A program made the translations under genes and the position numbers. Shown here piece after piece: positions 15,170 to 38,870 of a stretch of DNA of 64,000 nucleotides (within the stretch, counting starts at the first letter, position 1; each line of letters starts with the position of its first letter). A model generated the notes under the pieces. It searched no databases. It saw nothing but the letters and a program-made list of their open reading frames with translations, and was not told where the DNA came from. The stretch covers positions 11,604 through 75,603 of the forward strand of contig DAOKZP010000007.1 of assembly GCA_035325585.1 (NCBI GenBank), written 5' to 3'. This stretch comes from Thiobacillaceae bacterium (GTDB lineage: Bacteria > Pseudomonadota > Gammaproteobacteria > Burkholderiales > Thiobacillaceae).

Positions 15170-16345
15170 TCAGGCCTTGCGGCGGCGCATCGCGGCGAAG
15201 CCGAGGAGCGCGCTGCCCAGAAGGGCGAGCGTTGCGGGCTCGGACACAGTCGTTACGCGCGGCATGGAGCCGATGAAGAGCTGCTCGTAGCCGTTGTTGA
15301 GGCTGCGGCCGTGGTTGCCGGCCGATCCCGTGCATGAGGTGTTCGGGTCGGTGTTGGGGTCGCAGCCCATGCGCCAGTCGAGGCTCAGCACGTCGTAGCC
15401 GCCGAAGTCGGCCAGCGCCAGGATGTCGTTCAGCGCCGGGAACACCACCGCGTACACCGCTTGGTTCGCGCCCAGGTTGTGGTTGATGGGGCCGCCGACT
15501 GCATCCGGACTGGTGCACGAAACCACCGACATGGTCGCCGTGTAGCACAGCGCGCCGCCGGAGAGCACGTAATCGGTCGCGTTGTTATCGCCCGCAAGCG
15601 GCCCGGTCGGGGTGCCGAGCGTGCCGCTACCGGCCGTGCCGTTGAGCACGCCGCCGCCGCCTTCCGAAACCAGCGCGTACTTGCCGCCGCCGTTGGTGAA
15701 GTAGAGGGTCAGCGGATCCAGCGCGCCCTGGTCGTCATACAGCGTCAGTGCGGCCCAGATCGCCAGGTTCTGGTTTTCCGCATCGCCGGAGCTGACCTGG
15801 TTGTTGTTGAAGAAGAACACGGGGGAGCCGTTGTTCGTGTAGTCGTTCAACGAGGTGAGGCGCACGTCCCAGGTGTCGGCCGCGTCGCCGCTGAACTCGT
15901 TCGTGCCGCCGGGATCGTTCGGCAGCAGGCAGTTGTTCGTGCCGCACAGACCGGTGTAGGCCGTCTTGTTGGTGCTGAAGAACTCGAGTCCGCTGGAGTT
16001 GGGCGTCGGGTACGCGTTGTCCATGCCGGGGAAGTTGGTGTTGATCGGGCCGCCCCTCGCGCCGGTGCCGATCACGGTCAGATCCTTGATCGCACCCGGC
16101 GACGAATTCACATAGTACGGGTTGCCCGGGGTGATCGAGTTGGACGTCGTTCCGTTGTTGTAGTAGTCGTACAGGATGCCCAGCACGGGCAGGGAATAGG
16201 AGTTTCCGTCCCCGTAGGTGACGTAGGGCGCCGGAATGTTCGTGCCTTCGATGTAGGTCAGATCGAGGGCGCTGGCGAGCGGGGCGCCGCCGACGCCTGC
16301 AAGTGCGAACGCTGACAGGGCGGCGAGTTGCTTGAGGTCTTTCAT
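15170..16345 (-). CDS. PEP-CTERM sorting-domain surface protein (VSEP variant)
   Basis: Signal peptide MKDLKQLAALSAFALAG...ASA; Asn/Gly/Thr-rich body; C-terminus VSEPATLALLGSALLGFAAMRRRKA. Confidence 0.92.
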   Translation of the reverse strand: MKDLKQLAALSAFALAGVGGAPLASALDLTYIEGTNIPAPYVTYGDGNSYSLPVLGILYDYYNNGTTSNSITPGNPYYVNSSPGAIKDLTVIGTGARGGPINTNFPGMDNAYPTPNSSGLEFFSTNKTAYTGLCGTNNCLLPNDPGGTNEFSGDAADTWDVRLTSLNDYTNNGSPVFFFNNNQVSSGDAENQNLAIWAALTLYDDQGALDPLTLYFTNGGGKYALVSEGGGGVLNGTAGSGTLGTPTGPLAGDNNATDYVLSGGALCYTATMSVVSCTSPDAVGGPINHNLGANQAVYAVVFPALNDILALADFGGYDVLSLDWRMGCDPNTDPNTSCTGSAGNHGRSLNNGYEQLFIGSMPRVTTVSEPATLALLGSALLGFAAMRRRKA

Positions 16346-16411
16346 CGAGATTCTCCCGGAGTGGGTTCTTAATTGCCGTTGCGTCATGGTATACGGGCTT
16401 GCCTACCTACA

Positions 16412-16427
16412 AGCAACGTCGGTGCCA
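16412..16427 (-). promoter_or_regulatory. Sigma54 (-24/-12) promoter of PEP-CTERM gene 1
   Basis: Minus strand reads TGGCAC-CGACG-TTGCT, a consensus match. Confidence 0.9.
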
Positions 16428-16491
16428 GAAATAAATTTACCTTATATAACAATCGGCTATACGATTTCGTCCCGATGGCGTCTGACGCTCT

Positions 16492-16508
16492 TGTAAAGAA
16501 AACCGACG
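16492..16508 (-). promoter_or_regulatory. Putative PrsR enhancer (PEP-CTERM box)
   Basis: Minus strand CGTCGGTTTTCTTTACA, 64 nt upstream of TGGCAC; matches the motif at 26853. Confidence 0.8.
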
Positions 16509-16605
16509 ATTTGGATGGCGCGGTGCGTGAGCGTTTGTCCGCACGGTGCCAGGCGCCGGTCAGCCTGACGCACCCCGTACCGGCGCCGTGTGACGGCTCT
16601 GCCGA

Positions 16606-18093
16606 TCAGAAGTTGTAGCGCACCTCGGTGTAGACCCGGTCGCGGTCCGCGTAGGGGCCGAACAGGCCGTCGGCAGGACCGTCAAGAATGTCGACGCCCG
16701 CAGCGAGGCGCCAGTTGCCGTCGGGTTTCCAGTTCAGCTTGAACTGAGCCAGCCAGTCGGTGCGGTTGAGGCTGTGGATGAGGAAGATCTCGGGTTCGAG
16801 CCTCGGGTGCAGGGCCTGGGTGCTGAAGAGGAACGAGACGCCGCTCTCGGTCGCATCCTGGACCATGCCGGCATCGTGGTCGGGGAACCAGCGCTGGAAG
16901 AACTGGACGTTGAAGCGCGTCTCCTCGGGAAAGCTCCACTCCAGGCCGATCACGTAGTCGAGCAGATCCTGCCGCACCAGCGCGTCGGCGTCGCGCGGAT
17001 CGGCCGTGTAGAAGAGCTTGTCGCGGGTGTACACCGCCTCCGCCTTCAGCACCATCGGCCCCAGATCCTTGCCCAGTGTCGCGCCGAATTGGCGGATGCG
17101 ATCGTGGAAGGGACGGTAGAAGATCGCCGTCGGCGTGATTTCGCGCGCGAAGGCCGGCGCGGGATCGTTGGTGTCGTAATAGAAGCCGGCGACGTCCCAT
17201 CCGTTGCGCAGCCAGGAAAGCCGCAGGCCGTAGGCGGATTCGTCGAGCCCGACCGGCTGCTTTTCCTGTGCGATGATGGTCTGGAACCCCGGCACCGGGG
17301 GCGGCATGAAGGGATAGAACTCGGCGCCGGGCTTGCCGATGTCGTCATAGGTCATGTAGGGAATCCACACCGCTTCGGCATGGAAGTCGCCGGCAAAGTA
17401 CTCGGCGCGCGCCGCCCATTGCGGGATGCGGATCATGTCGAAATCCGGCAGCACCAGCTGGCGCATGTCCTTCGCCGACACGACGTCGGCGAAGAAGAGG
17501 CCGACCATTTCACCCCAGATGATGTGCTGGCGGCCGAGGCGGAATTCCCAATCGCCCGCGCCGATGTCGAGATAGGCTTCCCGGATCATCGCCTCGAAGC
17601 GCTGGTCGTCCCGCACCGCCGCGGGATAGTGGTCGGTCAGGTCGTAGATCGGGTCGTAATATGCCCGGCCGCCGAGTTTCCAGCCGATCCCGCCTGCGGT
17701 GCGGCCTTGGCCCGCGATGTCGAGCGTATTGTTGAAGCGTGACCAGTGCGCATCGCCGGCGTAGGTGTAGGCGAGGTCGTTTCCATAGAAACCCGACAGC
17801 GTCGGGCGGCCGGGATCGCTTGCCTCCGCGGTGGAACCGACGAGCGAGGGCAGAGCGTCGGTGTCGGCGGTCGGCGTCGGAATCGCGGGTACTGCGGCGG
17901 GAGCCGGCGTGGCCGGGGCCTCGGGCGCCGCAGGCGGGGGTGCCGGCGGGCCGCCGAAGAGGTCGTCGATCGATTGCTGCGCAAGGAGGTAGCGCTCGCC
18001 CGGATCCGTCCCGGCCGATGCGGCGCCGGCGACGGCGCTCAGGACGAGCGCGGCGGACAATCCGGCAGCGCGGGAACGAAGGGTCGATGTCAT
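16606..18093 (-). CDS. Outer-membrane beta-barrel protein (DUF1302-like)
   Basis: Signal peptide, Pro/Ala linker, REAY.D....W..RLGRQ.IIWG, aromatic alternating strands, C-terminal YTEVRYNF beta-signal. Confidence 0.75.
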   Translation of the reverse strand: MTSTLRSRAAGLSAALVLSAVAGAASAGTDPGERYLLAQQSIDDLFGGPPAPPPAAPEAPATPAPAAVPAIPTPTADTDALPSLVGSTAEASDPGRPTLSGFYGNDLAYTYAGDAHWSRFNNTLDIAGQGRTAGGIGWKLGGRAYYDPIYDLTDHYPAAVRDDQRFEAMIREAYLDIGAGDWEFRLGRQHIIWGEMVGLFFADVVSAKDMRQLVLPDFDMIRIPQWAARAEYFAGDFHAEAVWIPYMTYDDIGKPGAEFYPFMPPPVPGFQTIIAQEKQPVGLDESAYGLRLSWLRNGWDVAGFYYDTNDPAPAFAREITPTAIFYRPFHDRIRQFGATLGKDLGPMVLKAEAVYTRDKLFYTADPRDADALVRQDLLDYVIGLEWSFPEETRFNVQFFQRWFPDHDAGMVQDATESGVSFLFSTQALHPRLEPEIFLIHSLNRTDWLAQFKLNWKPDGNWRLAAGVDILDGPADGLFGPYADRDRVYTEVRYNF

Positions 18094-18099
18094 GGCGTG

Positions 18100-19083
18100 C
18101 TACTCCGCGATCCGGCCGTCGGCCAGTCCGATCACGCGGTCGGCCATCTCCATGACCCGCGCGTCGTGAGTGGAAAAGATGAAGGTCGTGCCTTCTTCCT
18201 GGTTGAGCTGTTTCATCAGCGCGAGGATGTCCTCGCCGGTCTTGTGGTCGAGGTTGGCCGTGGGTTCGTCGGCGAGCACGATCTTCGGCTGCGTCGCCAG
18301 TGCGCGTGCGATCGCGACGCGCTGGCGCTGCCCGCCGCTCAGCTCGTTGGGCCGATGGTGGGCATGCCCGGCGAGCCCCACGACCTCGAGGTAGCGCTCG
18401 ACCCGCTTGCGGCGCGCACCTGCGTCGACGTCGCGTTTCTGCAGCAGCGGATATTCCACGTTTTCCCAGGTGGAGAGCACCGGCAGCAGATTGAAGGTCT
18501 GGAACACGAAGCCGAGCGTGTCGAGCCGAAGGTCGGCCAGTTCGTCCGCCGATTTGCCGCTGACGTCCTGGCCTTCGATGGAGACGCGCCCCGAACTGGG
18601 CGTGTCGATGCAGCCGATCAGGTTCAGCAGGGTCGATTTGCCGCTGCCCGACGGACCGGCAAGCGCCAGGAACTCGCCACGCGCGACGCGGAGCGATACG
18701 TCTTCGAGCGCCGTCACCACCTGGTTTCCGAGGGCGTAATGCTTGCTGACATCCTCGACGAGCACGACCGCTTCCGCCGCTTCGGCCGCGTCCGCGGCGT
18801 CGTCCACGTATTCGAGCACGAAACGATGGATGCCGATGCGGTCGCCATGCTTGAGCGCGATGCGCCGGACCTTGGCGTCGTTGACGAACACGGCGTTCGT
18901 GCTGCCCAGGTCCTCGATGTAGAAGGTGTCGCCGTCACGGGTAAGGAGTGCATGCCGGCGGCTGACCTTGGGCGATTGCAGGCGGATCTCGCATTCCGAC
19001 GCGCGGCCGATGCGAAGGCGCGGCTTGCGCAGGCCGATTTCGCGCGTCTGCTGCTGCTCTTCGTAGATCAGGAGTTTGGCCAT
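18100..19083 (-). CDS. FHA-domain / ABC ATPase fusion (LolD/MacB-type)
   Basis: FHA: IGR...SRRHA...DLGSTN. ATPase: GPSGSGKST, LGFVFQTFNL, LSGGQRQRVAIARAL, LADEPTANLD, STHD. Confidence 0.92.
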   Translation of the reverse strand: MAKLLIYEEQQQTREIGLRKPRLRIGRASECEIRLQSPKVSRRHALLTRDGDTFYIEDLGSTNAVFVNDAKVRRIALKHGDRIGIHRFVLEYVDDAADAAEAAEAVVLVEDVSKHYALGNQVVTALEDVSLRVARGEFLALAGPSGSGKSTLLNLIGCIDTPSSGRVSIEGQDVSGKSADELADLRLDTLGFVFQTFNLLPVLSTWENVEYPLLQKRDVDAGARRKRVERYLEVVGLAGHAHHRPNELSGGQRQRVAIARALATQPKIVLADEPTANLDHKTGEDILALMKQLNQEEGTTFIFSTHDARVMEMADRVIGLADGRIAE

Positions 19084-19187
19084 GACGGGAGGTGGCGGTC
19101 ATCCGCTTGTCGTTGGCCTGCGCGATGCGCAGGCAGACTGAATATTAGTCGATAATGCCGGCTGAATCGCGCTACCTGAAGATCGCC

Positions 19188-20000
19188 ATGCTTTTCGCCA
19201 AACGCTCCGTCAGATTCTCGCCACGCAACCGCGTCGGGTCGCGCCGCGCCGGCATCCGCGCCGGGATCGCTCTGCTGTGCTTCGTGGCCGGGGGGGCGAT
19301 GGCCGCTGATGCTCCGGCGACGGACGCGCAGGCGCGCGAACTGCTGTCTCGTGCGGACCGGATCCGCTTTCCCGAGGAAGGTTTCCAGGTCGACGTCACC
19401 ATCACCAGCCACGCCCCGGGCCGGGAGCCGGAAGAGCGCGCCTACCGCATCCTATCCAAGGGCAACACTCGGACCCTGGTGCAGACCACGGCGCCGGCCA
19501 CCGAGCGCGACCAGATCCTGCTCATGCGGGAGCGCGACCTGTGGGCGTTCCTGCCCAATCTCTCGCAGCCGGTCCGGCTGCCGCTTTCGCAGCGGCTGAC
19601 CGGGCAAGTGGCCAACGGCGACCTCGCGCGCGCCAACTTCGCCGGCGACTACGAGCCCAGCATCCTGCGCCGGGAGACACTCGACGGAGAACCCTGCTAC
19701 GTGCTGCAGCTCGATGCGGTCGACAAGTGGGTGACCTATCGCCGGGTGGTCTACTGGGTGGGTGCGAAAGACGATCGGCCGCACAAGGCCGAGTTCTACG
19801 CGGTGTCCGGCCGCCTGCTGAAGACGGCCCATTACCGCGATTTCGAGGTGCTGGGCGGCGCGATCCGCCCGACCCGCATCGTCGTCGACGACGCTCTGAA
19901 AAGCGAGCATCGATCGGAACTGGTCTACCGCAACATGACGGCGCGCGAACTGCCGGATCGGGTCTTCACCAAGGATTACCTCAAGAAGCTGAGCCGCTGA
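19188..20000 (+). CDS. Outer-membrane lipoprotein-sorting (LolA-like) periplasmic protein; start uncertain (19155 or 19188)
   Basis: Signal peptide ending GGAMA; LWAFLP, NGDLAR, EFYAVSGRLLKT and F...YL C-terminus typical of the family. Confidence 0.8.
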   Translation: MLFAKRSVRFSPRNRVGSRRAGIRAGIALLCFVAGGAMAADAPATDAQARELLSRADRIRFPEEGFQVDVTITSHAPGREPEERAYRILSKGNTRTLVQTTAPATERDQILLMRERDLWAFLPNLSQPVRLPLSQRLTGQVANGDLARANFAGDYEPSILRRETLDGEPCYVLQLDAVDKWVTYRRVVYWVGAKDDRPHKAEFYAVSGRLLKTAHYRDFEVLGGAIRPTRIVVDDALKSEHRSELVYRNMTARELPDRVFTKDYLKKLSR

Positions 20001-20017
20001 GTTGCGCGGCGGCGGCG

Positions 20018-21229
20018 TCAGATGTTGTGGCGCAGCGCGTCGACCACGGCGAGACGGGCCGCGCGGCGCCCCGGCAGGATGGCCGCGACCGATGCCGCGA
20101 GCGCACCGATCACGGCGGCCGCCACGAGCGCCCACGGCACCACGCGTATGGATGCGACGTAGCCGGCAGCGGAACCCGGCGGCGGGGGCATGGGGATGCC
20201 GATGGCGGAGATGGCGACTGCGAGGAGGATGCCCCCGGCCACCCCGAGCGCTGCGCCGATGCAGCCGAGCAGGACATTCTCCAGCAACACGAGCTTGAAG
20301 ATCTGGCTTCGACGCAGGCCGATCGCCAACAGCGTGCCGAATTCGCCGGTCCGCTCGAATACCGCCATATTGACGGTGCTCGTCACGCTGAGGACCAGCA
20401 TGACGAGAATGATGAGTTGAAGCGCCCCGAACTGGCGCTTGTAAAGCGCGACGGTCTTGGCGTAGAAATCGGCCAGTTCGTGCCAGGCCCTGACGTCGTA
20501 GCCCCGTTCCGCGAGGGCCTCCTTCACGCCGGCGACGACCCGATCAGTGGCAGCGGTATCGTCGAGCAGGACGACGAGGCTGTGGACGGACGGCGTGAAC
20601 AGAAGCTCCTGCGCCGCGGCGAGCGGAATCCGGACCGCACGGTCGTCGTAATCCTTCGAGAACGTGCGGAACACGCCGACCACTTCGAGTTCGAGTGTGT
20701 TCAGCGCGCCCTCCGGGGTGTTCGTCATCAGCGTGAGATGGCTGCCCGGCTGCAGGCGCAGAGCGGCGGCGACCCCTTCGCCGATCACCGCGCCGAATGC
20801 GTCTTCGTCACGCAGTGCGCGCCCGGAGACCAGGGTGGTCGCCGTCCCCAGGCGGTTTTCCTTCTCCGGTTCGACGCCTTCGCCGATGATCGGCAGGTCG
20901 GCCTGGCCGTTGTTCGCAAGCCCCGAAAATGCCAGCCGTGCCATCACGTCCCGCACCGACGGCAAAGGCCGGAGCACGCCCGCCACTTGTTCGGGGTCTT
21001 CGATCAGATAGCCGGCGGGATCGCGCCGGCCGTGCTCCGGATAGCCGGCGCGGAAGACCTGCAGATGGCCGAGGCGGGAGTGGATGGTCGATTCGCGCAA
21101 CTGGATGAACGCGTCCTCGACGAAGCCGCCGCTGAGGATGATCGCCGCCACGCCGGTGGCGACGGCCGCCAGCGTGAGCAAGGTACGCGCGCGGTTGCGG
21201 AAGATGTTGCGGAAGGCGAGTTTGAGCAT
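20018..21229 (-). CDS. ABC permease, FtsX/LolC-E family (copy 2)
   Basis: LAFRNIFRNRARTLLT, large periplasmic loop, ERTGEFGTLLAIG, three C-terminal TM helices, ...ALRHNI. Confidence 0.92.
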   Translation of the reverse strand: MLKLAFRNIFRNRARTLLTLAAVATGVAAIILSGGFVEDAFIQLRESTIHSRLGHLQVFRAGYPEHGRRDPAGYLIEDPEQVAGVLRPLPSVRDVMARLAFSGLANNGQADLPIIGEGVEPEKENRLGTATTLVSGRALRDEDAFGAVIGEGVAAALRLQPGSHLTLMTNTPEGALNTLELEVVGVFRTFSKDYDDRAVRIPLAAAQELLFTPSVHSLVVLLDDTAATDRVVAGVKEALAERGYDVRAWHELADFYAKTVALYKRQFGALQLIILVMLVLSVTSTVNMAVFERTGEFGTLLAIGLRRSQIFKLVLLENVLLGCIGAALGVAGGILLAVAISAIGIPMPPPPGSAAGYVASIRVVPWALVAAAVIGALAASVAAILPGRRAARLAVVDALRHNI

Positions 21230-21246
21230 GCCGGCGGTCCAGGTGC

Positions 21247-22482
21247 TCAGATGTTGTGCCGCAAGGCGTTGACGATCTGCTGGCGCGACCCTTTCCATGC
21301 CGGATAGAGGCCGGCCAGCATGGTCGTGACGGCGGCGATCAGGAACGCGGCGAGCAGCAGCCCGGCCGTGACGCGTATTTCCCCCGTGAAGCCTCGCTCC
21401 ATTCCCGGGGGCGGCGGCATGGGAATGCCGATCGCCGAGATCAGCGCGGCCAGCGCGACGCCCAGGACGACGCCGGCCAATCCGCCGAAGAGGCCGAGCA
21501 GCAGACCTTCCGTCGCGAACATCTGCAGGATCTTCCGGCGCCGGAAGCCGATCGCCAGCAGGGTGCCCACCTCGCCGGTGCGTTCCATCACGTTCATGAT
21601 GAGCATGTTCGAGATGCTGAGCACGATGATCAGGCCGATGATCAGGCGCAGCACGCCGATCTGCTGCGAGAACAGGGCGACCGTCTTGTTGTAGAAGTCG
21701 GCATGCGCGTACCAGGGCACGAATTCCAGCGGGCCGTCATCCTGCGGGAAGCGTGTGCGGAACAGGCTCAGGAAATGGTCGGTCTGCTCCGTCTCCTCCA
21801 GCAGCACGAGCCAGAGGTGCGCGCCCTGGACGCGCAACAGGGTCTCGGCCTGGGCGAGCGGAAGCCTGAGTGCGGAATCGTCGTAGGCCTGGTTGGTGCT
21901 GGTGAAGATGCCCACCACCGTGGCTTCGACGGCGTTGATCCCGCTTCCGGATGCCGTCGTCAGCAGCGCGACCACGTCGCCGGGGCCGACGCCCATGCTG
22001 CGCGCCAGCCCGCGTCCGACGATGACTTCCGGTGCTTCCGCACTCGCCAGGTTGCGCCCCTCCACGATGTGTAGGGCTTCGCTGAGCGCCTGCTCCTTCC
22101 CGGGAATGACGCCCTCGGCGAGAAACGACGCGGTGGTTTCGCCATGGCTGATGAGACCGGTCACCTTGAGCCGTGGCGCGACCAGCTTCACGCCCGGCGT
22201 GGATTCGAGGGCTGCTGTGACGCGGGAGTCGCGCGGCAGGAGGAAGGCCAGGGGATCCGCGACGCCCTCGCTGAAGTAGCCCGGACGCACGACCTGGACG
22301 TGGCCGGACTGGAACTTGATCGTGCCTTCCCGCATCGCCCAGAAAATCCACTGGATGAAACCTTCGGCCAGGACCATGGAAACGACACCCGCCGCAATGA
22401 TGAAAAGCGCGGCCAGGGAGCGGCGGCGATTGCGGGTAAGATTGCGCAGGGCAATCAGCAGGTCGGCGAGTTGGCGGCGCAA
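21247..22482 (-). CDS. ABC permease, FtsX/LolC-E family (copy 1)
   Basis: ALRNLTRNRRRS, ERTGEVGTLLAIG, YPAWKGSR...ALRHNI. Confidence 0.92.
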   Translation of the reverse strand: MRRQLADLLIALRNLTRNRRRSLAALFIIAAGVVSMVLAEGFIQWIFWAMREGTIKFQSGHVQVVRPGYFSEGVADPLAFLLPRDSRVTAALESTPGVKLVAPRLKVTGLISHGETTASFLAEGVIPGKEQALSEALHIVEGRNLASAEAPEVIVGRGLARSMGVGPGDVVALLTTASGSGINAVEATVVGIFTSTNQAYDDSALRLPLAQAETLLRVQGAHLWLVLLEETEQTDHFLSLFRTRFPQDDGPLEFVPWYAHADFYNKTVALFSQQIGVLRLIIGLIIVLSISNMLIMNVMERTGEVGTLLAIGFRRRKILQMFATEGLLLGLFGGLAGVVLGVALAALISAIGIPMPPPPGMERGFTGEIRVTAGLLLAAFLIAAVTTMLAGLYPAWKGSRQQIVNALRHNI

Positions 22483-22573
22483 ACGAGGACTCCCGGCCGG
22501 TAGTGTCGGCTGTTCTTGGCTGGATCGGACTCAGGAAACAGCCATCGTAATCGAACTGGAGGAAGTCGGGCGC

Positions 22574-23839
22574 TTGGGCGACGTGCGATCAGGCAGAAAA
22601 GTCGTTCTTCTCGTGGCGGAGGCGGTCACGCTCGCCCATTACGGCCGCGTCGCGACGCTGTCCCGGGTACTTCCGCCGGACGAATACGAAGTCATCGTCG
22701 CGGCCGATCCGCGGTATCGGGCGCTGGACGAAATCGCGGAAGCCGCGTTCCACCCTCTGTGGTCGATCCCGTCCGCGCAGTTCGCGCGTGCGCTGGATCG
22801 CGGCGCCCCCCTCTACGATGCGGCCACGCTCACGCGTTATGTCGAGGCCGACCTGGCGCTCCTCGACGCGGTCCGGCCGGATCTCGTGGTGGGAGATTTC
22901 CGGCTTTCGCTGGCGATCAGCGCACCGCTGCGCGCGTGTACCTACGCCTCGATCGTCAACGCCTACTGGAGCCCGTACGCCGAGCTCGACTATCCCGTGC
23001 CCGAGCTGCCGTTCACCCGGATCACCGGCCTCCGGATCGGGCAGGCGCTGTTCGACGCGGTGCGCCCCTTCGCCTTCGGAATGCACGCCCGGCCCTTCAA
23101 TCGCGTGCGGCGGCGGTACGGACTGCCCCCGCTCGGCAACGATCTCCGGCACACCTACACCTGGGCCGATCACACGCTGTATGCGGACATCCCCGATCTG
23201 GTGCGGACTCGCAACCTGCCCGCCAATCATCGCTTTCTCGGCCCGGTGTTCTGGAGCACGCAGACTGCCTTGCCGGGCTGGTGGGCGGACCTTCCACGCG
23301 AACGGCCGGTCGTGTTCCTCACCCTCGGCAGCTCGGGCCGCGCCGGCCTGCTGCCCAGGGTGCTCGATGCGCTGGCGGAGTTGCCGGTTACGGTCGTCGC
23401 GGCGACGGCTGGCGGTACCGCGCCGGCTCGCCTGCCCGCGAACGCCTTTGCCGCCGATTACCTGCCGATGGATGTGGCGACGGTAAACTGCGCGCTGGTC
23501 ATCAGCAACGGAGGCAGCCTGACTACCTATCGCGCCCTGGCCATGGGGGTTCCGGTGCTCGGCCTGTGTTCGAACATGGACCAGTTGTTGAACATGAACG
23601 CGGTAGCGGCCCTGGGCGCGGGAATCGCGCTCCGGGCCGGCCGGGCGAACGCCGCCGAGATCCGTGCCGCGGTTCGCGCCCTGCTGGATGCGCCGCGCTA
23701 CCGCGAGGCGGCGGAACGGGCCGGCCAGGCCGTCCGGCAGCACGATGCGGGACGGGAGTTCCGCGCGTTCGTCGGCGAGGTCCTCGGAGATCCCGGAGCG
23801 CGCGCGGCCGAGCGCCCGCGCGGTGAACGCACCGGATGA
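22574..23839 (+). CDS. GT1-family glycosyltransferase resembling mycobacterial PGL/p-HBAD rhamnosyltransferases; TTG start inferred
   Basis: AEAVTLAH, PDLVVGDFRLSL, NAYWSPY, TLGSSG, NGGSLTT..AL..GVP and NMDQ; GGAGG at 22558. Confidence 0.88.
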   Translation: MGDVRSGRKVVLLVAEAVTLAHYGRVATLSRVLPPDEYEVIVAADPRYRALDEIAEAAFHPLWSIPSAQFARALDRGAPLYDAATLTRYVEADLALLDAVRPDLVVGDFRLSLAISAPLRACTYASIVNAYWSPYAELDYPVPELPFTRITGLRIGQALFDAVRPFAFGMHARPFNRVRRRYGLPPLGNDLRHTYTWADHTLYADIPDLVRTRNLPANHRFLGPVFWSTQTALPGWWADLPRERPVVFLTLGSSGRAGLLPRVLDALAELPVTVVAATAGGTAPARLPANAFAADYLPMDVATVNCALVISNGGSLTTYRALAMGVPVLGLCSNMDQLLNMNAVAALGAGIALRAGRANAAEIRAAVRALLDAPRYREAAERAGQAVRQHDAGREFRAFVGEVLGDPGARAAERPRGERTG

Positions 23840-25443
23840 AGGATGCGGCCCGCATCCACTGGGACGTGATCGTGATCGGCGCGGGGATGGGCGGCGCCAC
23901 CATCGGACATGCGCTGGCACAGGCGGGGAAGCGGGTTGTGTTCTGCGAACGTGGCAGAGCGGCTTCGCGACCGGACGCCGTCACGGGCCGCTACCCGGAA
24001 ACCGGTTTCAGGCCTGCATCGGCGCCCCAGCCGGAACACGAAGCATTGCTCGCGGGCGCGGGGCGAGACTGGAACGAGATCGACGATGCGAGCCGCGCCC
24101 GCCGCCGATCCTGGATTCCCTTCGTCGGGGCGGGGACGGGCGGTTCCAGCGCGTTGTACGGCATGGCCTTGGAGCGCTTGTATCCCACGGACTTCACCCC
24201 CCGTATCATGCATCCCGATGCGCCGGGTGCCGACCTGCCGGACGCCTGGCCCATCGATTACGCGGAACTCGTCCCGTTCTATGAGGCGGCCGAGCGCCTG
24301 TATCGGGTCCGCGGCGAAGCCGACCCGCTGCGGGGCGACGATTTTCGGCCGGCTTACCTGACGCCTCCGGTGCTGACGCGTGGTGCGGAAAAGCTGCGGG
24401 ATTACCTGCGTGATCGCGGCTGCCATCCCTATCGTCTCCCCCAGGCCTGCGAGTTCGAACCGAGGTGCGAGTGCTGCCAAGGCTATCTTTGCCCACGCGA
24501 GTGCAAGAACGACAGCGGCCGGATCTGCCTCGAACCGGCGCTTGCCCGGCACGGCGCCAGCCTGCTGGAAGAATGCGAGGTATTGCACCTGGAGGCGGAT
24601 GCGACGCGGGTGACCGGAGTCGTCTGCCGGCACCGGGGCGAGACGCACGTCTTGCGCGGGCGCGTCGTGATCCTCGCGGCCGGCGCGCTCTACAGCCCCG
24701 CCATTCTCCTTGCTTCCCGCTCCACGATATGGCCGGATGGACTGGCGAACCGCTCCGGGCTCGTCGGCCGCAACCTCATGCGTCACTTCATCGACCTTTA
24801 CGTGCTCCGATCCGGCCTGGAGGATGCCGATCGGCGCTGGAAGGAGATCGCCTTCAACGATTGCTACGCCGACGGAAGCAGGTTCGGTTCCGTCCAATCC
24901 TTCGGCGCGCTGCCCCCCGCGGCGGTGCTCGTCGCGTCGCTGCGGCAGGACGTGAGACATGCATGGGGCCCGATCGCGGCGGGCGCACTCGGGCTGGCCG
25001 GGCCCGCCGTCCGCGCGTATCTCGAGCGGACGCTCTCCCGCGGGCCGATCATGGCGTCGATCCAGGAAGACCTGCCCTATCGCGACAACCGGATCGTGCC
25101 GGGCCTCGGCAACGGCGGGCTGGGATTCGTCTACCGGATCCGGCCGCAGGACCGGGTGCGCATCCGGCGCATGCGCGCTCATCTGCGCGGACTTTTCGCG
25201 CCCTTCCGGCCCATGCTGCTCGCGCAGGCGGAGAACAACCAGCGCCTGGCACACGTCTGCGGCACCTGCCGGTTCGGCGCCGATCCCGCCACCAGCGTGC
25301 TCGACCGCGACAATCGCGCCCATGGCGTCGATAATCTCTTCGTGGTCGATGCCTCGTTCTTCCCTACCAGCGGGGGCATCAACCCCGCGCTCACGGTTGC
25401 TGCCAATGCCTTGCGCGTCGCGGCGCGCATTGCCACCGCATGA
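23836..25443 (+). CDS. GMC-family FAD oxidoreductase with Cys-rich segment
   Basis: GAGMGG dinucleotide fold, GTGGSS, LAAGAL.SP.ILL.S, H.CGTCRFG, VVDASFFPTSGGINP.LT. Confidence 0.92.
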   Translation: MKDAARIHWDVIVIGAGMGGATIGHALAQAGKRVVFCERGRAASRPDAVTGRYPETGFRPASAPQPEHEALLAGAGRDWNEIDDASRARRRSWIPFVGAGTGGSSALYGMALERLYPTDFTPRIMHPDAPGADLPDAWPIDYAELVPFYEAAERLYRVRGEADPLRGDDFRPAYLTPPVLTRGAEKLRDYLRDRGCHPYRLPQACEFEPRCECCQGYLCPRECKNDSGRICLEPALARHGASLLEECEVLHLEADATRVTGVVCRHRGETHVLRGRVVILAAGALYSPAILLASRSTIWPDGLANRSGLVGRNLMRHFIDLYVLRSGLEDADRRWKEIAFNDCYADGSRFGSVQSFGALPPAAVLVASLRQDVRHAWGPIAAGALGLAGPAVRAYLERTLSRGPIMASIQEDLPYRDNRIVPGLGNGGLGFVYRIRPQDRVRIRRMRAHLRGLFAPFRPMLLAQAENNQRLAHVCGTCRFGADPATSVLDRDNRAHGVDNLFVVDASFFPTSGGINPALTVAANALRVAARIATA

Positions 25444-25518
25444 GCATCGCGCAACGATCGTTTACGGCGCCCCGACTTTATTCTTGCTTCCACCGGCTTG
25501 CCGGTCTGACCCGGAATC

Positions 25519-26391
25519 GTGACGATGAACGACGACAAGGAATCCACAAACCGTTTTTTCCGGGTTTTCTGCGCGCTTCCGGAGCGCGAAATCGAGGCGG
25601 ACGTTTCCGTCTCGTTCAGCTCGACGCTCGATCTCAGCGCGATCGAGGCGGCGCGTGCCGCGGCAGCGCATGCCGGCACGCGCAAGCCGTCCTATACCGC
25701 CTTCGTCATCCGGGCGGTGGGCCGTGCGCTGCAGGAACATCCCTACGCCAACCGGCGGGTCTTTCGCAGCCCCTGGCGGCTCGGCGGGCCCTGGCTGCAC
25801 AGTTTCGACCAGGCCGACATCGCGGTGGCGGCGGAGCGCGACGTACCGGGCCGGGAGTATGTCGCCTTCGTCGACGTGCTTCGGGAGGCGGATCGCCGCT
25901 CGCTCGATGAAATCCACACCTGGCTTGCCGCGCTGGCGCGCAGCGACGAAGAGAACAACGCGCAGTGGCGCGAATTCAGTGCGCTCATCCGACGTTTTCC
26001 GTGGCGACTGTCGGCCCTGATCCTGCGCCTGCCCGCCTGGATTCCCTCCTGGTGGACGCGCTACCGTGGCGCGGCCGTTCTCGTCTCGTCGCCCGCCAAG
26101 TACGGTGTCGGCAGCGTCACCGCGTCCTGGGCCTGGCCGATCGGCATTTCCTTCGGTTACGTGGGCCCCAGGCCGGTGGTTCGGGACGGGGAGGTCGTCG
26201 TCCGCCCCTGCTTCGAGTTTTTGATGAACTTCGATCGTCGCGTGATGGCGGGAGCCGCCGCCGCCCGGTTCTTCAAGCGGATCTGCGAACTCATCGAAGC
26301 GGGCGACGAGGCCGGAGTCCACCATGCGCGGGAAGGCGACGCTGGCCGAGCCGATGCCGTCGATACGGTGCGGGCGGGAGAGACGTTATGA
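25519..26391 (+). CDS. Stand-alone 2-oxoacid dehydrogenase E2-type acyltransferase domain with degenerate active site
   Basis: SYTAFVIRAVGRAL..HP..N, DIAVA, ..RPVVRDGEVVVR and FDRRVMAGA (canonical DHRxxDG); no lipoyl domain. Confidence 0.8.
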   Translation: MTMNDDKESTNRFFRVFCALPEREIEADVSVSFSSTLDLSAIEAARAAAAHAGTRKPSYTAFVIRAVGRALQEHPYANRRVFRSPWRLGGPWLHSFDQADIAVAAERDVPGREYVAFVDVLREADRRSLDEIHTWLAALARSDEENNAQWREFSALIRRFPWRLSALILRLPAWIPSWWTRYRGAAVLVSSPAKYGVGSVTASWAWPIGISFGYVGPRPVVRDGEVVVRPCFEFLMNFDRRVMAGAAAARFFKRICELIEAGDEAGVHHAREGDAGRADAVDTVRAGETL

Positions 26392-26840
26392 AGGAACTGG
26401 TTACGGAGGTGACGATCGCGGCCAGTGCGGAGGAGGTCTTCCGCATCCTGACCGACGTGGCGCGGTACGCGGAATGGAACCCGCTCATCGTGTCGGCACG
26501 GGGGAAGGTCGCTCCCGGGAAGAAGCTGGATATCCGCATCCGCCCGCCCGGCAAGACGGATCAGCCCTACGTCGTCGAGGTCGTGCGCGTCGTTCCCGGG
26601 CGCGAATTCGTCTGGCTGGGCCGCATGAAGATGAAGGGCATCCTCGACGGCCTTCACTTCTTCGAACTGCACCCCGACGGCGAACATCGCGTGCGCGTCG
26701 TTCACCGCGAGGAGTTCCGCGGCCTGTTGGTGCCCTTCGTCTGGCGGGCCTTCCTGGATACCCGGATGCGCGAAGGTTTCGAGGCGCTCAACCGGCGCCT
26801 CAAGGAACGTGCGGAACAGAGCGTCGCTGAGCCGGGATGA
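26388..26840 (+). CDS. SRPBCC/START (polyketide cyclase 2) family protein
   Basis: EVTIAASAEEVF.ILTD...Y.EWNP and C-terminal helix F..LN..LK.RAE; ATGA overlap with the upstream gene. Confidence 0.88.
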   Translation: MKELVTEVTIAASAEEVFRILTDVARYAEWNPLIVSARGKVAPGKKLDIRIRPPGKTDQPYVVEVVRVVPGREFVWLGRMKMKGILDGLHFFELHPDGEHRVRVVHREEFRGLLVPFVWRAFLDTRMREGFEALNRRLKERAEQSVAEPG

Positions 26841-26852
26841 GGCGGATGACCG

Positions 26853-26869
26853 TGTCGGAAATTTTTACA
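26853..26869 (+). promoter_or_regulatory. Putative PrsR enhancer (PEP-CTERM box)
   Basis: TGTCGGAAATTTTTACA (TGT-N11-ACA), 64 nt upstream of TGGCAC. Confidence 0.85.
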
Positions 26870-26933
26870 GTCTGCACTACCGACATGGCGTGCTATAACG
26901 GCAGCACATTGTTTTAAAAAGGAATTTTGTTTC

Positions 26934-26949
26934 TGGCACGGCGCCTGCT
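26934..26949 (+). promoter_or_regulatory. Sigma54 (-24/-12) promoter of PEP-CTERM gene 2
   Basis: TGGCAC-GGCGC-CTGCT (GG-N10-GC). Confidence 0.85.
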
Positions 26950-27021
26950 TCATGTTTGGCCAAGCGGCGGGCATCGCCCCGCTCCCACCAGACAACGATC
27001 TCAATCTCGAAGGGGACGAAC

Positions 27022-27975
27022 ATGAAGAAATCCGTACTTGCCGCTGCCATCCTGATGGCGGTCGGCGTTTCCGCGGCACAGGCAGGCGAAGTGATTGCGA
27101 TCAATCCGGATGCCGCGGGCGGCGACGCGACCCTGCAGGTCGGCTCCCTCGGCTGGCAGAATGGCAATGCGATTACCATCGGCGGCGCCAATGTCGTGCA
27201 AGGCGACATCATCCAGACCTACGCCCACGCCTCCCTGGCCAACTTTACCGACGCGGACGGCAATCCCATCGGCGGACTCTCGCTGAACACGGCGGGTGGC
27301 TATGAATGGACCTACGTGGCCGGCTTCCAGGAAGTTGTCACGGCGACGAGCGGCAGCGGTGCGACCTCGACTGCGACATTCCAGATCGTGGATGGCGGAC
27401 ATAACTTCTTCGAGATCTATTACGACGCGTCGCGCGACGCCAACAACCTCACCGGCATGGGCTTCAATGACGGCCTCCTGATCCTTTCCGGCACCGTGCT
27501 GCCGTTCGATGCGTTGACCGGCGAAGGCGCGAGCAGCTTCAACGCAACCGGCCTGGACTCGGCGCTGGACAAGTTTGGTACAAACAACTATCCGGGCATC
27601 GGAACCATCGTCGGCAACGGCTCGACCAACCTGACGGTCGGCGTTAGCTACTTCGATCCGAATTTCTTCATGGGGGGCGTCGATTTCCTCACGGTTTCCT
27701 TCGACACCTTCCAGAACACGCCGTACCAGCAACAGAACCCGTCCGCGTGCTTCTGGAACGGCAGCGCGTACGTAAACGGGGCCGGAGGCCAAGGCACCAG
27801 CTGCACGAATAGCGTGGGTGCGACGAACGGGATCGACGGACCGAACTTCATGTTCGAAACCCGCGCCAGCAGCGCGTTCAATGTCACCACGGTACCGGAG
27901 CCGGCTTCGCTTGCCCTGCTCGGAGCCGGTCTGCTCGGATTCGGACTGGCACGCCGTCGCAAGAGCAAGGCCTGA
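27022..27975 (+). CDS. PEP-CTERM surface protein, possibly of the flocculation-associated PepA type
   Basis: Signal peptide MKKSVLAAAILMAVGVSAAQA; Asn/Gly/Thr-rich; C-terminus VPEPASLALLGAGLLGFGLARRRKSKA. Confidence 0.93.
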   Translation: MKKSVLAAAILMAVGVSAAQAGEVIAINPDAAGGDATLQVGSLGWQNGNAITIGGANVVQGDIIQTYAHASLANFTDADGNPIGGLSLNTAGGYEWTYVAGFQEVVTATSGSGATSTATFQIVDGGHNFFEIYYDASRDANNLTGMGFNDGLLILSGTVLPFDALTGEGASSFNATGLDSALDKFGTNNYPGIGTIVGNGSTNLTVGVSYFDPNFFMGGVDFLTVSFDTFQNTPYQQQNPSACFWNGSAYVNGAGGQGTSCTNSVGATNGIDGPNFMFETRASSAFNVTTVPEPASLALLGAGLLGFGLARRRKSKA

Positions 27976-28321: not shown

Positions 28322-31108
28322 CTAGCGTTCGAGCTCCCCCAGCAGCCGCCGGGCGTCGGCGGACTCGGGGAAGGGCCGCTTTGCGTCAAGCGCGGTCTTC
28401 AGTTCCGCACGCGCATCGGCGCGCTTTCCCGCCTTTGCCAGCGCCTGTGCAAGGCGATAGCGGATCGAGGGGTCCGCGGGCGCGAGATCGGCCGCCTTGC
28501 GCAGGATGCGCACGCTGTCCTCCGTGCGCCCGCCGGCGAGAAGCGCCCAACCGTAGGTGTCGGCGATGGACGCCGAGTCGGGCTGGCGCGCATAGGCCTT
28601 CTCGGCGAGCCCGAGTGCGCGCGGATCGCGCAAGGCCACGTAGACCAGGGCGAGATCGTTCTGGATCGCGATGTTTTCGGGCGTCTTGCTCAGGATGTAT
28701 TCCAGGTGCCGGGCCGCCTCGCGAGGCCTTCCGTCCGCCTTGTGGGCCGACGCGAGATAGGCCCGGCTCAGATGGTCGTCGGGATGATCCTTCAGCCACC
28801 GGTCCATTGCCTCATAAGCGCGTGCCTTTTCGCCAGCACGGTAGCGGGCCTTGAAGAGACTGAGTGCGGTAGCGCCGCTGGGTGCGATCGCGAATGCCCG
28901 CTCGTAACGCTTTGCCGCTTCGGCGGGTTTGCCCTGGCCAAGCAACAGATCGCCTTCGAGTGCGAATCCGGTGGGCGATGCGGGGTGGCGCGCCTGCAGC
29001 ATGCTCGCGTGTTCGCGGGCCGCGGCGAGGTCGCCGGCTGCGGCCTCCAGCATGGTGATCCGGGCAAGCGCCTCCGGGTGATCGGGGTCAAGCTTGAGCG
29101 CGGTCGCCAGCGTGCTGCGCGCAGTGGCCGGGTTGCCCGCGGCGGCCTGGGCTGCGGCCATGCCCACGTGAGCGTCGACGGACCGCGGGGCGAGTTGCAG
29201 CAGCTTCTGATACGTCGCCACCGCGCCCGAGGCTTCGCCTGCCGCGATCTGGATCCTGCCCTTGAGATCCAGGTAGGTCGCGTTCTTCATGCCGTACCGG
29301 TCGCCGTCGCGCGTGTACGTGAGCGCGGTGCGGACCGCGTTCTTGTCCAGATAGTGACGCATCAGCTGAACCCGGGCCGGCACGGATTGGGGTGCCGCCG
29401 TGAGCGCGGACTGCAGGGTGTTCACGTATGCGGTGTCGTTGCCTTGCCGACGCTCGATGCTGGCCAGCAGCAGAAGCGCCTCCACGCTCTGAGCCTGCCC
29501 GCTTGCGAGTTTTTGCAGGCGCGTTTGCGCATCGGCAAGTTTGTTTTCCGCGATGTCGACCTGGGCGAGATTGAGCACGGCGGCCTCATCGGATGGTTCG
29601 GCTTCGATTGCCTGGCTGAAGCTTTGGCGTGCACCTGCCAGATCCTCCCGAGCCAGTCGGATGGCGCCCTCCAGATTGAGGGGCAAGGCGCGATCCGGGT
29701 GTTTCGCACGCAGCGCCTGCGCGACCGCGAGGGCTTCTTCATGGCGATGCAGTTGCAGCAGGGTCTGCACCAGCAGTTTGTTGGCCTGGAAATCGGGGGT
29801 GTCGTTCCGTGCCGCGGCCCGCAGCGTTTCCAGGGCTCTTTCCTGCTCTCCCGAGGCCGCCTGGGTCCGGGCGAGCGCAACCTGCAACGTGGCCTGGTCC
29901 GGGTCCTTTTCCAGCGCTTCGACGAAGAGCCGCCGTGCGTCGGCAAGCTGGCCGGAAATCGCGGATGCGCTCGCGGCCAGCGCCAGCGATTGCGTGTCCG
30001 GTGAGGGCTGGTTCAAGGCGGGGCGCATGAGGTCGAGCGCCTGCCTGCCCTCGCCGGCCCGGATCATCAGCTCGGCGAGCAGCTTGCGAACGGCCGTATT
30101 TTCCGGCTGCTTCGCCAGCACGCGTGACAGGTTGGAACGCGCGGTCTCGTATTCGCCCAGCCGGTAGGACGACAGCCCGAGCAGCAGGAGCGCGGAGGTG
30201 TGGTCGGGCGCGCGCCGCAGGATGTCCTGCGCCTTGTCGCGGGTGATTTCGGGCTTCCCTTCGGAGAAGGCCGCCAGGCCTTCCAGGTACTTGATGGGGA
30301 TGCTTTCGGGGTACCGCTTGCGGGCTCGATCGATGTCCTTCCGGGCGGCCACGACGTCGCCCAGCTTGAGCGCCGTATAGGCGTGGCCGGTGATGGCCGC
30401 CATGTCGTTCGGCGCGATCTGCAAGGCCTGACCATAGGCGGCATGGGCCGCTTTGGCGTTTCCAAGCTGGTCCTCGAGTTCGGCCTCGAGCAGCCAGCTT
30501 TGGACGTCCTGGGGATCCAGGCGCCTTGCGTGCAGGATCAGGCTTCGCGCCTGTTCGGCGTCTTTCCGGGCGAAGGCGCATTTGGCCTGTCCGATGTAGG
30601 CGTGGGCGTACTGCGGATCGGCCTGTGCCGAATCGTCGAATTCGGCACAGCCGCGTTCCAGGTTGCCGAGGCCCAGCTGCGCTTCGCCCAGCAGATGCAG
30701 CAACCTGGCCTTGTCGGCGGGGACGATGTCAGGCGCTGGACGGATTTCGTCGACGAGCCGCTGATACGCGTTCTGGAGCAACAGGGAACGCGCCAGCGGG
30801 AGCATGAGAGGCCCTGGTGCGGCGCCGAATTCCTTCGCCCTGATCAACTCTTTTTCCGCCTCGGCACCCAGACCGCTCTGGATGTAGCTGTCGGCGAGCA
30901 GGCGTCTGACCTCCGGGTTGCTCGGATCCTTTTGGGCGGCGTTCTTGAGGTCGATGATGCTGGCCTTCAGGTCGCCCTTCTGCTGCGAGACGCGGGCACG
31001 CGCGACGAGTTCTTCGACCGAGGGATCGAGGAGCTTGCCGCACCCGGGCAGCGTGACGGCAAACAGGGACGCGATGAGCATCGCGGTAGCGAGTGGACGC
31101 AGTTGCAT
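28322..31108 (-). CDS. prsT: XrtA/PEP-CTERM system TPR-repeat lipoprotein PrsT (paralog 2)
   Basis: Lipobox LPGC, IIDLKNAAQ..P, AEKEL..A, TPR repeats, DTYGW near the C-terminus; downstream of prsKR. Confidence 0.88.
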   Translation of the reverse strand: MQLRPLATAMLIASLFAVTLPGCGKLLDPSVEELVARARVSQQKGDLKASIIDLKNAAQKDPSNPEVRRLLADSYIQSGLGAEAEKELIRAKEFGAAPGPLMLPLARSLLLQNAYQRLVDEIRPAPDIVPADKARLLHLLGEAQLGLGNLERGCAEFDDSAQADPQYAHAYIGQAKCAFARKDAEQARSLILHARRLDPQDVQSWLLEAELEDQLGNAKAAHAAYGQALQIAPNDMAAITGHAYTALKLGDVVAARKDIDRARKRYPESIPIKYLEGLAAFSEGKPEITRDKAQDILRRAPDHTSALLLLGLSSYRLGEYETARSNLSRVLAKQPENTAVRKLLAELMIRAGEGRQALDLMRPALNQPSPDTQSLALAASASAISGQLADARRLFVEALEKDPDQATLQVALARTQAASGEQERALETLRAAARNDTPDFQANKLLVQTLLQLHRHEEALAVAQALRAKHPDRALPLNLEGAIRLAREDLAGARQSFSQAIEAEPSDEAAVLNLAQVDIAENKLADAQTRLQKLASGQAQSVEALLLLASIERRQGNDTAYVNTLQSALTAAPQSVPARVQLMRHYLDKNAVRTALTYTRDGDRYGMKNATYLDLKGRIQIAAGEASGAVATYQKLLQLAPRSVDAHVGMAAAQAAAGNPATARSTLATALKLDPDHPEALARITMLEAAAGDLAAAREHASMLQARHPASPTGFALEGDLLLGQGKPAEAAKRYERAFAIAPSGATALSLFKARYRAGEKARAYEAMDRWLKDHPDDHLSRAYLASAHKADGRPREAARHLEYILSKTPENIAIQNDLALVYVALRDPRALGLAEKAYARQPDSASIADTYGWALLAGGRTEDSVRILRKAADLAPADPSIRYRLAQALAKAGKRADARAELKTALDAKRPFPESADARRLLGELER

Positions 31109-31112
31109 GGTC

Positions 31113-33896: not shown

Positions 33897-33947
33897 GGGA
33901 ATTCCGTTAGGGAGGTTCGCTGAGTTCGTGGAAGCGTGCCGGGGGCG

Positions 33948-37381: not shown

Positions 37382-37402
37382 GGGTGGTCTCGAAGGGGAG
37401 GA

Positions 37403-38794: not shown

Positions 38795-38833
38795 AGCTTT
38801 TTCATCCGGAATGCGGTGGGCAACGAGAGGTTC

Positions 38834-38849
38834 AGCATCTTCCGTGCCA
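38834..38849 (-). promoter_or_regulatory. Putative sigma54 promoter for the sugar [23 protein letters not shown] operon
   Basis: Minus strand TGGCAC-GGAAG-ATGCT (GG-N10-GC), 40 nt before the GTG start. Confidence 0.6.
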
Positions 38850-38870
38850 GTGTGGCCCGCGGTCGGGTAC

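Follow-up and report, generated by a model that had tools for sequence, protein, structure and literature searches.

A PEP-CTERM-linked gene cassette of a Thiobacillaceae bacterium predicted to tailor and export an N-acyl amino acid glycolipid

Introduction

Several described systems resemble parts of the locus studied here, a nine-gene cassette bracketed by two PEP-CTERM genes in a Thiobacillaceae bacterium (assembly GCA_035325585.1; positions refer to "the window," the 64,000-nucleotide stretch of contig DAOKZP010000007.1, or C7, that was analyzed). Like the cassette, the Escherichia coli LolCDE-LolA-LolB pathway combines heterodimeric type VII permeases, a LolD-like ATPase, and a LolA-fold periplasmic carrier. 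Mycobacterial LppX also has a LolA fold, and the glycosyltransferases of phenolic glycolipid (PGL) synthesis act on a phenol. The monoterpene exporter AmeABCD of Castellaniella defragrans joins a DUF1302 barrel, a LolA-superfamily protein, and an inner-membrane pump, operates without TolC, and has a hydrophobic cargo (PMC6394551). The putative export system BBJ23-29 of Borrelia (PMC13078400) pairs a type VII ATP-binding cassette (ABC) transporter with a LolA-like protein and an outer-membrane barrel, and a non-polar ligand has been proposed for it. DevBCA-HgdD, a type VII ABC system, exports heterocyst glycolipids (PMC6161253), and the mycobacterial locus for phthiocerol dimycocerosate (PDIM) and PGL (MmpL7, LppX, DrrABC; PMC13098245) offers an analogy as a lipid cluster with MMPL and ABC transport.

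On the biosynthetic side, the OxzAB trio makes N-acyl-tyrosine oxazolones (bioRxiv 10.1101/2020.06.11.147165), and an N-acyltransferase, a ThiF protein, and a nitroreductase form the proposed route to N-acyl dehydrotyrosines (PMC12479983). This combination, which our genome shares, characterizes the OxzAB, TyzACB, stieleriacine, thalassotalic acid, as well as kyonggic acid clusters (PMC12479983, PMC7293339); OxzB genes have been noted to cluster with glycosyltransferases, and the Stieleria cluster includes a PEP-CTERM gene along with unassigned transporters. For N-acyl amino acid synthases, a link to PEP-CTERM/exosortase systems has been drawn (Craig, Cherry and Brady 2011, cited by PMC11072679 and PMC7293339), and an ExoAT mutant of a methanotroph has been studied for polysaccharide band formation.

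A first-pass annotation of the window proposed that the cassette either makes and exports a glycolipid or carries PEP-CTERM proteins or PrsT lipoproteins to the outer membrane. We find that the locus is real and conserved and that, as predicted from its gene content, the module probably exports an N-acyl-aromatic-amino-acid glycolipid made at the locus. Glycolipid export is the best-supported of the proposed alternatives, and putative lipid-making genes have now been found on the same contig.

Results

A putative lipid-making gene trio on the same contig

The contig also holds hemB, outside the window and 23 kb to the left of the cassette. [quoted passage not shown] The trio also gives partial matches, below cut-off, to the PRK14851/14852 and Rv1355c families. 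The synthase does not match TIGR03694 (ExoAT), which alone would therefore miss it, and the order-wide synthase counts below are the union of TIGR03694 with PF21926. In relatives the trio directly adjoins the barrel gene of the cassette. BLAST comparison with three such loci showed a housekeeping block plus the trio reversed relative to the cassette, so that a single inversion of about 26 kb, with one end near a rep gene (window 14744), accounts for the separation. Elsewhere in the assembly (1.7 Mb, 67% complete), contig C4 holds exosortase A (XrtA, 362.9 bits versus a cut-off of 208) and polysaccharide genes; together with the substrates, PrsK/R/T, and enhancer plus sigma-54 promoters described below, this makes up an XrtA/PEP-CTERM system.

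Several features of the synthase locus were noted along the way. The run from hemB through the trio (G000:C7:531-4364, L025) has counterparts across several families, in which hemB, often with a YcgR-like gene, is a conserved anchor (e.g., L012, L025, L249, L263), and four loci (L014, L093, L121, L238) carry an alternative set comprising an N-acetyl-sugar amidotransferase-like protein, an AMP-binding enzyme, and a fatty-acyl reductase-like protein.

Genome-wide distribution of the transporter modules

We profiled 261 genomes across the order, 260 of them at least 90% complete plus our own (G000); because kin are not independent, p values would overstate the evidence and we rely on the counts. 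PrsK was found in 81 genomes, the synthase in 80, the ABC-type module of the window in 35, and any PF17131 (LolA-like) protein in 99. A second module, consisting of an MMPL pump, a DUF1302-like barrel, and a LolA-like protein, was found in nine genomes, all with PrsK and the synthase. The two types never share a genome (0/261, with 3.8 expected among PrsK genomes), and both are present within genera g1, g19, and g101. All 44 carriers of either type have the synthase and 43 have PrsK, and neither module occurs in the nine PrsK genomes that lack the synthase. The suggested link of the cassette to the PEP-CTERM system was therefore borne out: rather than falling mostly in genomes without PEP-CTERM/exosortase genes, the window-type transporter clade is accompanied by PrsK in 34 of 35 genomes, and only 1 of 180 PrsK-negative genomes has it, while 41 of those 180 encode some other PF17131 protein.

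Among 24 genomes of the same genus, 21 encode full PrsK and 23 give a strong synthase match, and the window-type LolA-like clade is present in only 3. The idea that the transporter is dispensable in the genus (3/24) was wrong in part, since a family search recovered a strong PF17131 match in 22 of the 24, the other 19 being of the MMPL type. The MMPL gene adjoins in 16 of these, the remaining three lying at contig ends, and in seven same-genus genomes the module sits inside the prsK/prsT locus. Loci with the MMPL, DUF1302-like barrel, and LolA-like module include L117, L119, L120, L122, L125, L137, L141, and L248-L254.

In a tree of 48 LolA-like proteins the ABC and MMPL types resolve into two distinct groups, with support values of 93 and 99, and each lies closer to proteins that share its own pump class, which argues that whole modules were recruited separately and that no pump swap occurred; this is a quick tree in which long branches meet, and it supports two groups rather than an order of events. 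A third arrangement emerged among the 29 genomes that encode PrsK and a synthase yet lack both modules, from which 20 synthase loci were retrieved: in two (L232:5872-8700 and L235:3900-6728) a DevB/DevA/DevC-like exporter lies between the GT1 glycosyltransferase and hexapeptide-repeat genes, within a synthase-nitroreductase-GT1-hexapeptide run.

Neighborhoods of homologous cassettes

Scanning GTDB contigs with a seven-sequence LolA-like alignment returned at least 480 relatives, of which the best 80 were taken; 46 loci of at least 15 kb were counted, with markers scored by BLAST against reference proteins at bit thresholds, and many are close kin (e.g., 11 Zoogloea loci). The barrel is present in 45, the ATPase in 46, and both permeases in 31. 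A PEP-CTERM-system gene lies near in 39, a trio gene in 27, and either in 42; in 24 the stretch itself includes a PEP-CTERM gene, and 15 have prsT/K/R. GMC, E2-like, and SRPBCC genes occur in one, none, and none of the 46, respectively, which indicates that the nine do not form a single fixed set. In Zoogloea-like loci (L062-L076, L101, L102, L107), the barrel, ATPase, and LolA-like genes abut a wza/xrtA polysaccharide cluster, with permeases beyond the 10-kb flanks.

These counts bear on whether unrelated genes have simply come together by chance in a variable island. Gene content between hemB and prsT does vary widely, and genes for GMC, E2-like, and SRPBCC proteins seldom lie next to the cassette. 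Against this, both modules are confined genome-wide to PrsK/synthase genomes even when unlinked, the E2-like family was independently found in the same gene set (see below), loci of distant LolA-like relatives carry no markers (0/8), and the G+C content of the cassette, overall and at third codon positions, matches host values and does not indicate a foreign origin. The genome-wide and locus counts largely refute chance co-location, which we regard as highly improbable.

Tailoring genes

The nearest PDB relatives of the GT1 enzyme are natural-product glycosyltransferases that act on small-molecule aglycones, and it likely acts on a phenol. Two plasmid homologs, one (33% identity) automatically labeled a PGL/p-HBAD glycosyltransferase and the other (39%) encoded behind a tyrosine isonitrile synthase, fit a phenolic acceptor but do not prove it. 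GT1 is found in 17 of the 46 long loci, and every one of the 16 loci with a hexapeptide-repeat acyltransferase also has GT1; this acyltransferase has no match in our assembly. GMC orthologs (50 to 55% identity) lie beside GT1, E2-like, or nitroreductase genes in L075, L150, L167, L180, L182, L237, and L239, and the GMC protein is likely a tailoring enzyme.

The E2-like protein consists of a catalytic domain only and differs from true E2/CAT enzymes, which have a catalytic His and a lipoyl domain: the catalytic DHRxxDG is replaced by DRRxxAG, with His-to-Arg and Asp-to-Ala invariant in 30/30 aligned homologs. Of the candidates scored, 264 were relatives at E ≤ 0.001; scanning GTDB contigs with the single sequence found nothing, and a metagenome scan with the alignment found 79 loci. 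The 32 of at least 5 kb contain GT1 (24), ThiF (14), nitroreductase (14), synthase (10), GMC (5), SRPBCC (2), and hexapeptide (1) genes, and 28 have at least one trio, GT1, GMC, or PEP gene. The GMC-E2-like-SRPBCC block recurs in L150, after a nitroreductase, and in L180, after another ABC/LolA-like set, which together with the content of the E2-like loci places these genes in the same pathway family. GT1, GMC, and E2-like genes accompany the trio elsewhere, so that their products are likely to be tailoring enzymes; the E2-like protein probably stands in for the hexapeptide acyltransferase. One shorter locus (L157, <5 kb) holds both acyltransferase types, and L167 has three E2-like copies in tandem after two GT1 genes. 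Other phenol- or chain-modifying genes occupy the same slot in relatives (O-methyltransferase, sulfotransferase, fatty-acid desaturase); mutual exclusivity of the O-methyltransferase and GT1 was considered and rejected, as both were scored in L032, L033, and L243.

Transporter components

The DUF1302 barrel has no match among PDB sequences; its AlphaFold model (mean predicted local distance difference test score, 81.9) has 18 long predicted strands and matches porin, OccAB2, and AlgE folds at template modeling (TM) scores of 0.36 to 0.48, in line with a published DUF1302 model, for which a complex with DUF1329 was also predicted (PMC13499233). The ATPase retains intact Walker A/B, signature, and H-loop motifs and scores below the LolD equivalog (223.3 bits versus 307.75). 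Its FHA domain (window 18800-19083) is a fusion limited to one subclade, the nearest, which accounts for all 19 of the 94 ATPase rows that carry it (some rows duplicated). The permeases have a MacB periplasmic core and an FtsX domain and, with this ATPase, constitute a type VII (MacB/FtsX) ABC transporter; they fall below the LolC/E equivalog (94.7 and 116.5 bits versus 362.45), and a true lolCE is present elsewhere in the genome (contig C12, 525.9 bits). The nearest solved structures are LolC/E/F, and in permease A the hairpin at what we take to be the LolC hook position is about six residues shorter in one pairwise alignment. The LolA-like protein is 56% identical to Nitrosomonas europaea NE2245 (PDB 3BUU), a protein of solved structure that is uncharacterized. 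It matches PF17131 but not the LolA family PF03548, which has no match in the 67%-complete assembly, and compares with true LolA at TM 0.35 to 0.40; a distant relative, LolA3 of Porphyromonas, binds LolB weakly (PMC13103446). Neither a membrane-fusion protein nor TolC, as in MacAB-TolC or DevBCA, is among the nine genes, and no MMPL pump was matched in the assembly.

Such parts could also serve to recycle or import an N-acyl amino acid, be it a signal or a nutrient, or to remove a toxic reactive oxazolone, rather than to build the surface. DUF1302/DUF1329 genes matter for growth of Pseudomonas putida on fatty esters (bioRxiv 2020.07.04.188060), AmeABCD is a detoxifying exporter (PMC6394551), and GMC and SRPBCC proteins could be catabolic. 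Yet type VII ABC permeases are established exporters or extractors (see also PMC13078400) and the loci show no recurring genes for beta-oxidation or amidases, so that we consider import or detoxification rather improbable.

PEP-CTERM proteins and PrsT as alternative cargo

If the module were the route by which PEP-CTERM proteins reach the outer membrane, it should accompany PEP-CTERM systems generally. It does not: 38 of 81 PrsK genomes have neither type, and 23 of 81 have no PF17131 match at E ≤ 1e-15. Five PrsK genomes assembled into one to three contigs lack both modules, yet all encode exosortase A over cut-off and 11 to 38 PEP-CTERM matches; four of them have no barrel match and the fifth a weak one. 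Three near-closed genomes, G128, G211, and G178 (1, 1, and 3 contigs; 14, 38, and 35 PEP-CTERM matches; all with exosortase A), have neither a PF17131 nor a barrel match, demonstrating that PEP-CTERM systems exist without this route. With two unrelated carriers in use and many PEP-CTERM bacteria having neither, the module is probably not the general exit route of PEP-CTERM proteins, and that part of the first-pass annotation, like its extension to PrsT, fails as a general account.

A narrower version holds that the locus-made lipid, a glycosylated N-acyl-tyrosine or oxazolone, is the anchor that exosortase A places on the neighboring PepA-type proteins, which the two independently recruited Lol-like machines (ABC and MMPL) would ferry to the DUF1302 barrel for surface display, other lineages using other routes. 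Confinement of both modules to PrsK genomes (43/44) would suit this, as would the PEP-CTERM gene within 24 of 46 long loci and its recurrence beside the trio, the proximity of the permeases to LolC/E/F, and the fact that the exit route of PEP-CTERM proteins, as the annotation had stated, is called unclear in PMC12188702. Opposed to it are the PrsK genomes without a strong PF17131 match, including near-closed ones with many PEP-CTERM genes, and the nine without a synthase; interchange with MMPL and DevBCA-like pumps suits a small lipid better, the modeled 18-strand porin-like barrel would be a narrow exit for proteins of 32 to 40 kDa, and the LolC hook appears shortened. We judge the anchor role unlikely.

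A dedicated shuttle for PrsT (or Wza) lipoproteins seems very doubtful. Both PrsT N termini do have a Cys after a hydrophobic stretch, and prsT often adjoins the cassette (prsT/K/R in 15/46). The genome nevertheless has canonical lolCE on C12, PrsT/PrsK genomes without the module are common, and substitution by an MMPL pump is hard to square with lipoprotein extraction.

Layout and regulation of the locus

All nine genes between the two outward-pointing PEP-CTERM genes were confirmed by the open reading frame list and family scans, the five envelope-path genes each by family matches, and the adjoining prsT-prsT-prsR-prsK likewise (Table 1). The LolA-like gene lies on the plus strand and the other four transport genes on the minus strand, an arrangement common in relatives, and the four genes from GT1 to SRPBCC form the partly overlapping operon previously described, with ATGA overlaps at GT1/GMC and E2-like/SRPBCC. 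One X10 contig covering 13823-29000 and one X14 contig covering 11189-16562, from runs of other studies, bridge the region, so the gene order is not an assembly artifact. The two bracketing genes encode the only PEP-CTERM proteins found by pattern in the 67%-complete assembly. The left one ends in VSEP rather than VPEP and has a 65% identical counterpart at the equivalent place in L011.

Table 1. Features of the cassette and its surroundings (window positions, except C7, which gives contig positions)
Feature	Position	Strand	Family evidence and remarks
PEP-CTERM protein, VSEP variant, Ser/Thr/Asn/Gly-rich	15170..16387	-	PF07589, 24.6 bits, over cut-off; likely start near 16345
PEP-CTERM enhancer box (16492-16508) and sigma-54 -24/-12 element (16412-16427)	16412..16508	-	
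DUF1302 outer-membrane beta-barrel	16606..18093	-	PF06980; signal peptide, Pro/Ala-rich linker
FHA + ABC ATPase, LolD/DevA/MacB type	18100..19083	-	PF00498 + PF00005
LolA-like periplasmic carrier	19155..20000	+	PF17131
Type VII ABC permease B	20018..21298	-	MacB_PCD + FtsX
Type VII ABC permease A	21247..22482	-	MacB_PCD + FtsX
GT1 glycosyltransferase, EryCIII/UDPGT-type	22583..23839	+	
GMC flavin oxidoreductase	23836..25443	+	
Stand-alone E2/CAT-fold protein (E2-like)	25519..26391	+	
SRPBCC/START lipid-binding protein	26388..26840	+	
PEP-CTERM enhancer box (26853-26869) and sigma-54 element (26934-26949)	26853..26949	+	
PepA-family (flocculation-associated) PEP-CTERM protein	26956..27975	+	NF033554, 87 bits (cut-off 80); TIGR02595; likely start 27022
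prsT, prsT, prsR, prsK, TIGR03013 sugar transferase	28322..38920	-	All over NCBIfam cut-offs
Synthase-ThiF-nitroreductase trio	C7:531-3284		PF21926, 191 bits; PRK08223 over cut-off

Coregulation of the two PEP-CTERM genes, as previously claimed, holds at the level of motifs: both have an enhancer box, with a sigma-54 element 81 nucleotides downstream of where the box starts. The 1.7-Mb assembly has no other pair of this kind (none in each of five shuffles), and none lies upstream of any of the nine inner genes. A sigma-70 scan gave promoters at chance level. A pepA promoter of the same type has been mapped in Aquincola (PMC9850573). Two further features were observed to the left. A CTACGA short tandem repeat (window ~14960-14990), between rep and the left PEP-CTERM gene, has one unit more in all four runs compared. 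A GNAT Acetyltransf_5 gene with weak FeeM similarity (window 9949-10698), possibly an ornithine-lipid-type N-acyltransferase, lies beside a metallophosphoesterase gene.

Discussion

We propose that the nine genes are the tailoring and export half of a fatty-acyl aromatic amino acid glycolipid pathway operating within a PEP-CTERM/exopolysaccharide system. By analogy with OxzAB and TyzACB, the trio would produce N-acyl-(dehydro)tyrosine or the corresponding oxazolone. GT1 would then glycosylate the phenol, the E2-like protein may either acylate the product or bind it, in the slot held in most relatives by a hexapeptide-repeat acyltransferase, the GMC protein may oxidize it, and the SRPBCC protein could hold the lipid in the cytoplasm. 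Extraction of the lipid from the inner membrane would fall to the permeases and ATPase, its carriage through the periplasm to the LolA-like protein, and its insertion or release to the DUF1302 barrel, with the outer membrane or floc matrix as destination. In other genomes the unrelated MMPL, LolA-like, and barrel set, or a DevBCA-like pump, would fill the same job.

Several lines of evidence favor glycolipid export. The trio is on the same contig and in relatives directly beside the cassette. No genome holds both the ABC and the MMPL type, though their LolA-like proteins belong to separate clades, and the DevBCA-like exporter occupies the same slot in two loci, DevBCA being a glycolipid exporter. 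MMPL/DUF1302/LolA-superfamily sets export hydrophobic small molecules, as in AmeABCD (PMC6394551). Homologs of the E2-like protein keep company with trio, GT1, GMC, or PEP genes in 28/32 loci, other phenol- or chain-modifying genes appear in the slot, and GT1 is of the small-molecule aglycone class.

Other observations pull the opposite way. Twenty-nine of 72 PrsK-plus-synthase genomes have neither module, and 18 of the 20 synthase loci fetched from them have no dedicated exporter within ~10 kb, six of these having GT1, which argues against the module being strictly required. A trio gene is near only 27 of the 46 long loci versus 39 for PEP-CTERM-system genes, so that linkage alone cannot separate lipid from protein cargo. 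GT1 is present in 0/7 MMPL-type loci, suggesting that the cargo is not always a glycoside, and the solved structures nearest to the permeases are lipoprotein extractors. Synthase and PrsK themselves largely co-occur (72/81, among kin that are not independent), and the likeness of the trio to OxzAB is one of gene content.

New in this analysis are the genome-wide exclusivity of the modules, the closed-genome counterexamples, the DevBCA-like set as a third option, the inversion between trio and cassette, and the assignment of the GMC-E2-like-SRPBCC block to the pathway. Glycolipid export would offer a candidate explanation of why N-acyl amino acid synthases adjoin PEP-CTERM genes, namely that they feed a tailoring line with a dedicated trans-envelope carrier, and a candidate cargo for the NE2245/3BUU (PF17131) family and for DUF1302 barrels. 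Two unrelated carrier modules would have been recruited to one job, never together. The locus suggests that floc-forming sludge bacteria and nitrifiers have a surface glycolipid not described before, and the E2-fold family without the His could hold new chemistry. Were the lipid an anchor, it would settle how exosortase substrates are anchored and exit the cell and, for about half of the betaproteobacteria with PEP-CTERM systems, would supply both the anchor of the floc proteins and their way out.

The claim that this is a new system is too strong: the parts resemble AmeABCD, Borrelia BBJ23-29, and OxzAB, and the cassette is better seen as a variant on such systems. Literature searches, which covered subscription papers thinly, found no paper describing the exporter together with PEP-CTERM or N-acyl amino acid genes. 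Compared with LolCDE-LolA-LolB, the components fall below the LolC/E/D cut-offs, the carrier is of PF17131, a DUF1302 barrel stands as receptor, the hook appears shorter, and the module is accessory and patchy, canonical lolCE being encoded elsewhere in the genome. AmeABCD differs in its pump, AmeD being an HAE3 resistance-nodulation-division protein (compare the alternative MMPL module) where the cassette has an ABC transporter. Its AmeB is a DUF1329 protein, an AmeC-like gene is not among the nine, and its context is catabolic rather than biosynthetic. In Borrelia BBJ23-29, the barrel is of the Omp85 type, the permease is homodimeric, and the plasmid-borne locus is without biosynthetic genes; export is putative there also. 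Unlike in OxzAB/TyzACB, ThiF and nitroreductase are separate genes here, and the available passages on the Oxz, Tyz, and stieleriacine clusters describe neither a glycosylated product nor a LolA-like/barrel exporter. The PDIM/PGL locus, with a polyketide backbone, another envelope, and no DUF1302 barrel, is not homologous as a system. PEP-CTERM-linked synthases likewise lie beside PEP-CTERM genes, but the synthase here is of the FeeM family and below TIGR03694. DevBCA-HgdD, finally, needs a membrane-fusion protein and TolC, neither of them among the nine genes, and it is a DevBCA-like set that replaces the module in L232 and L235.

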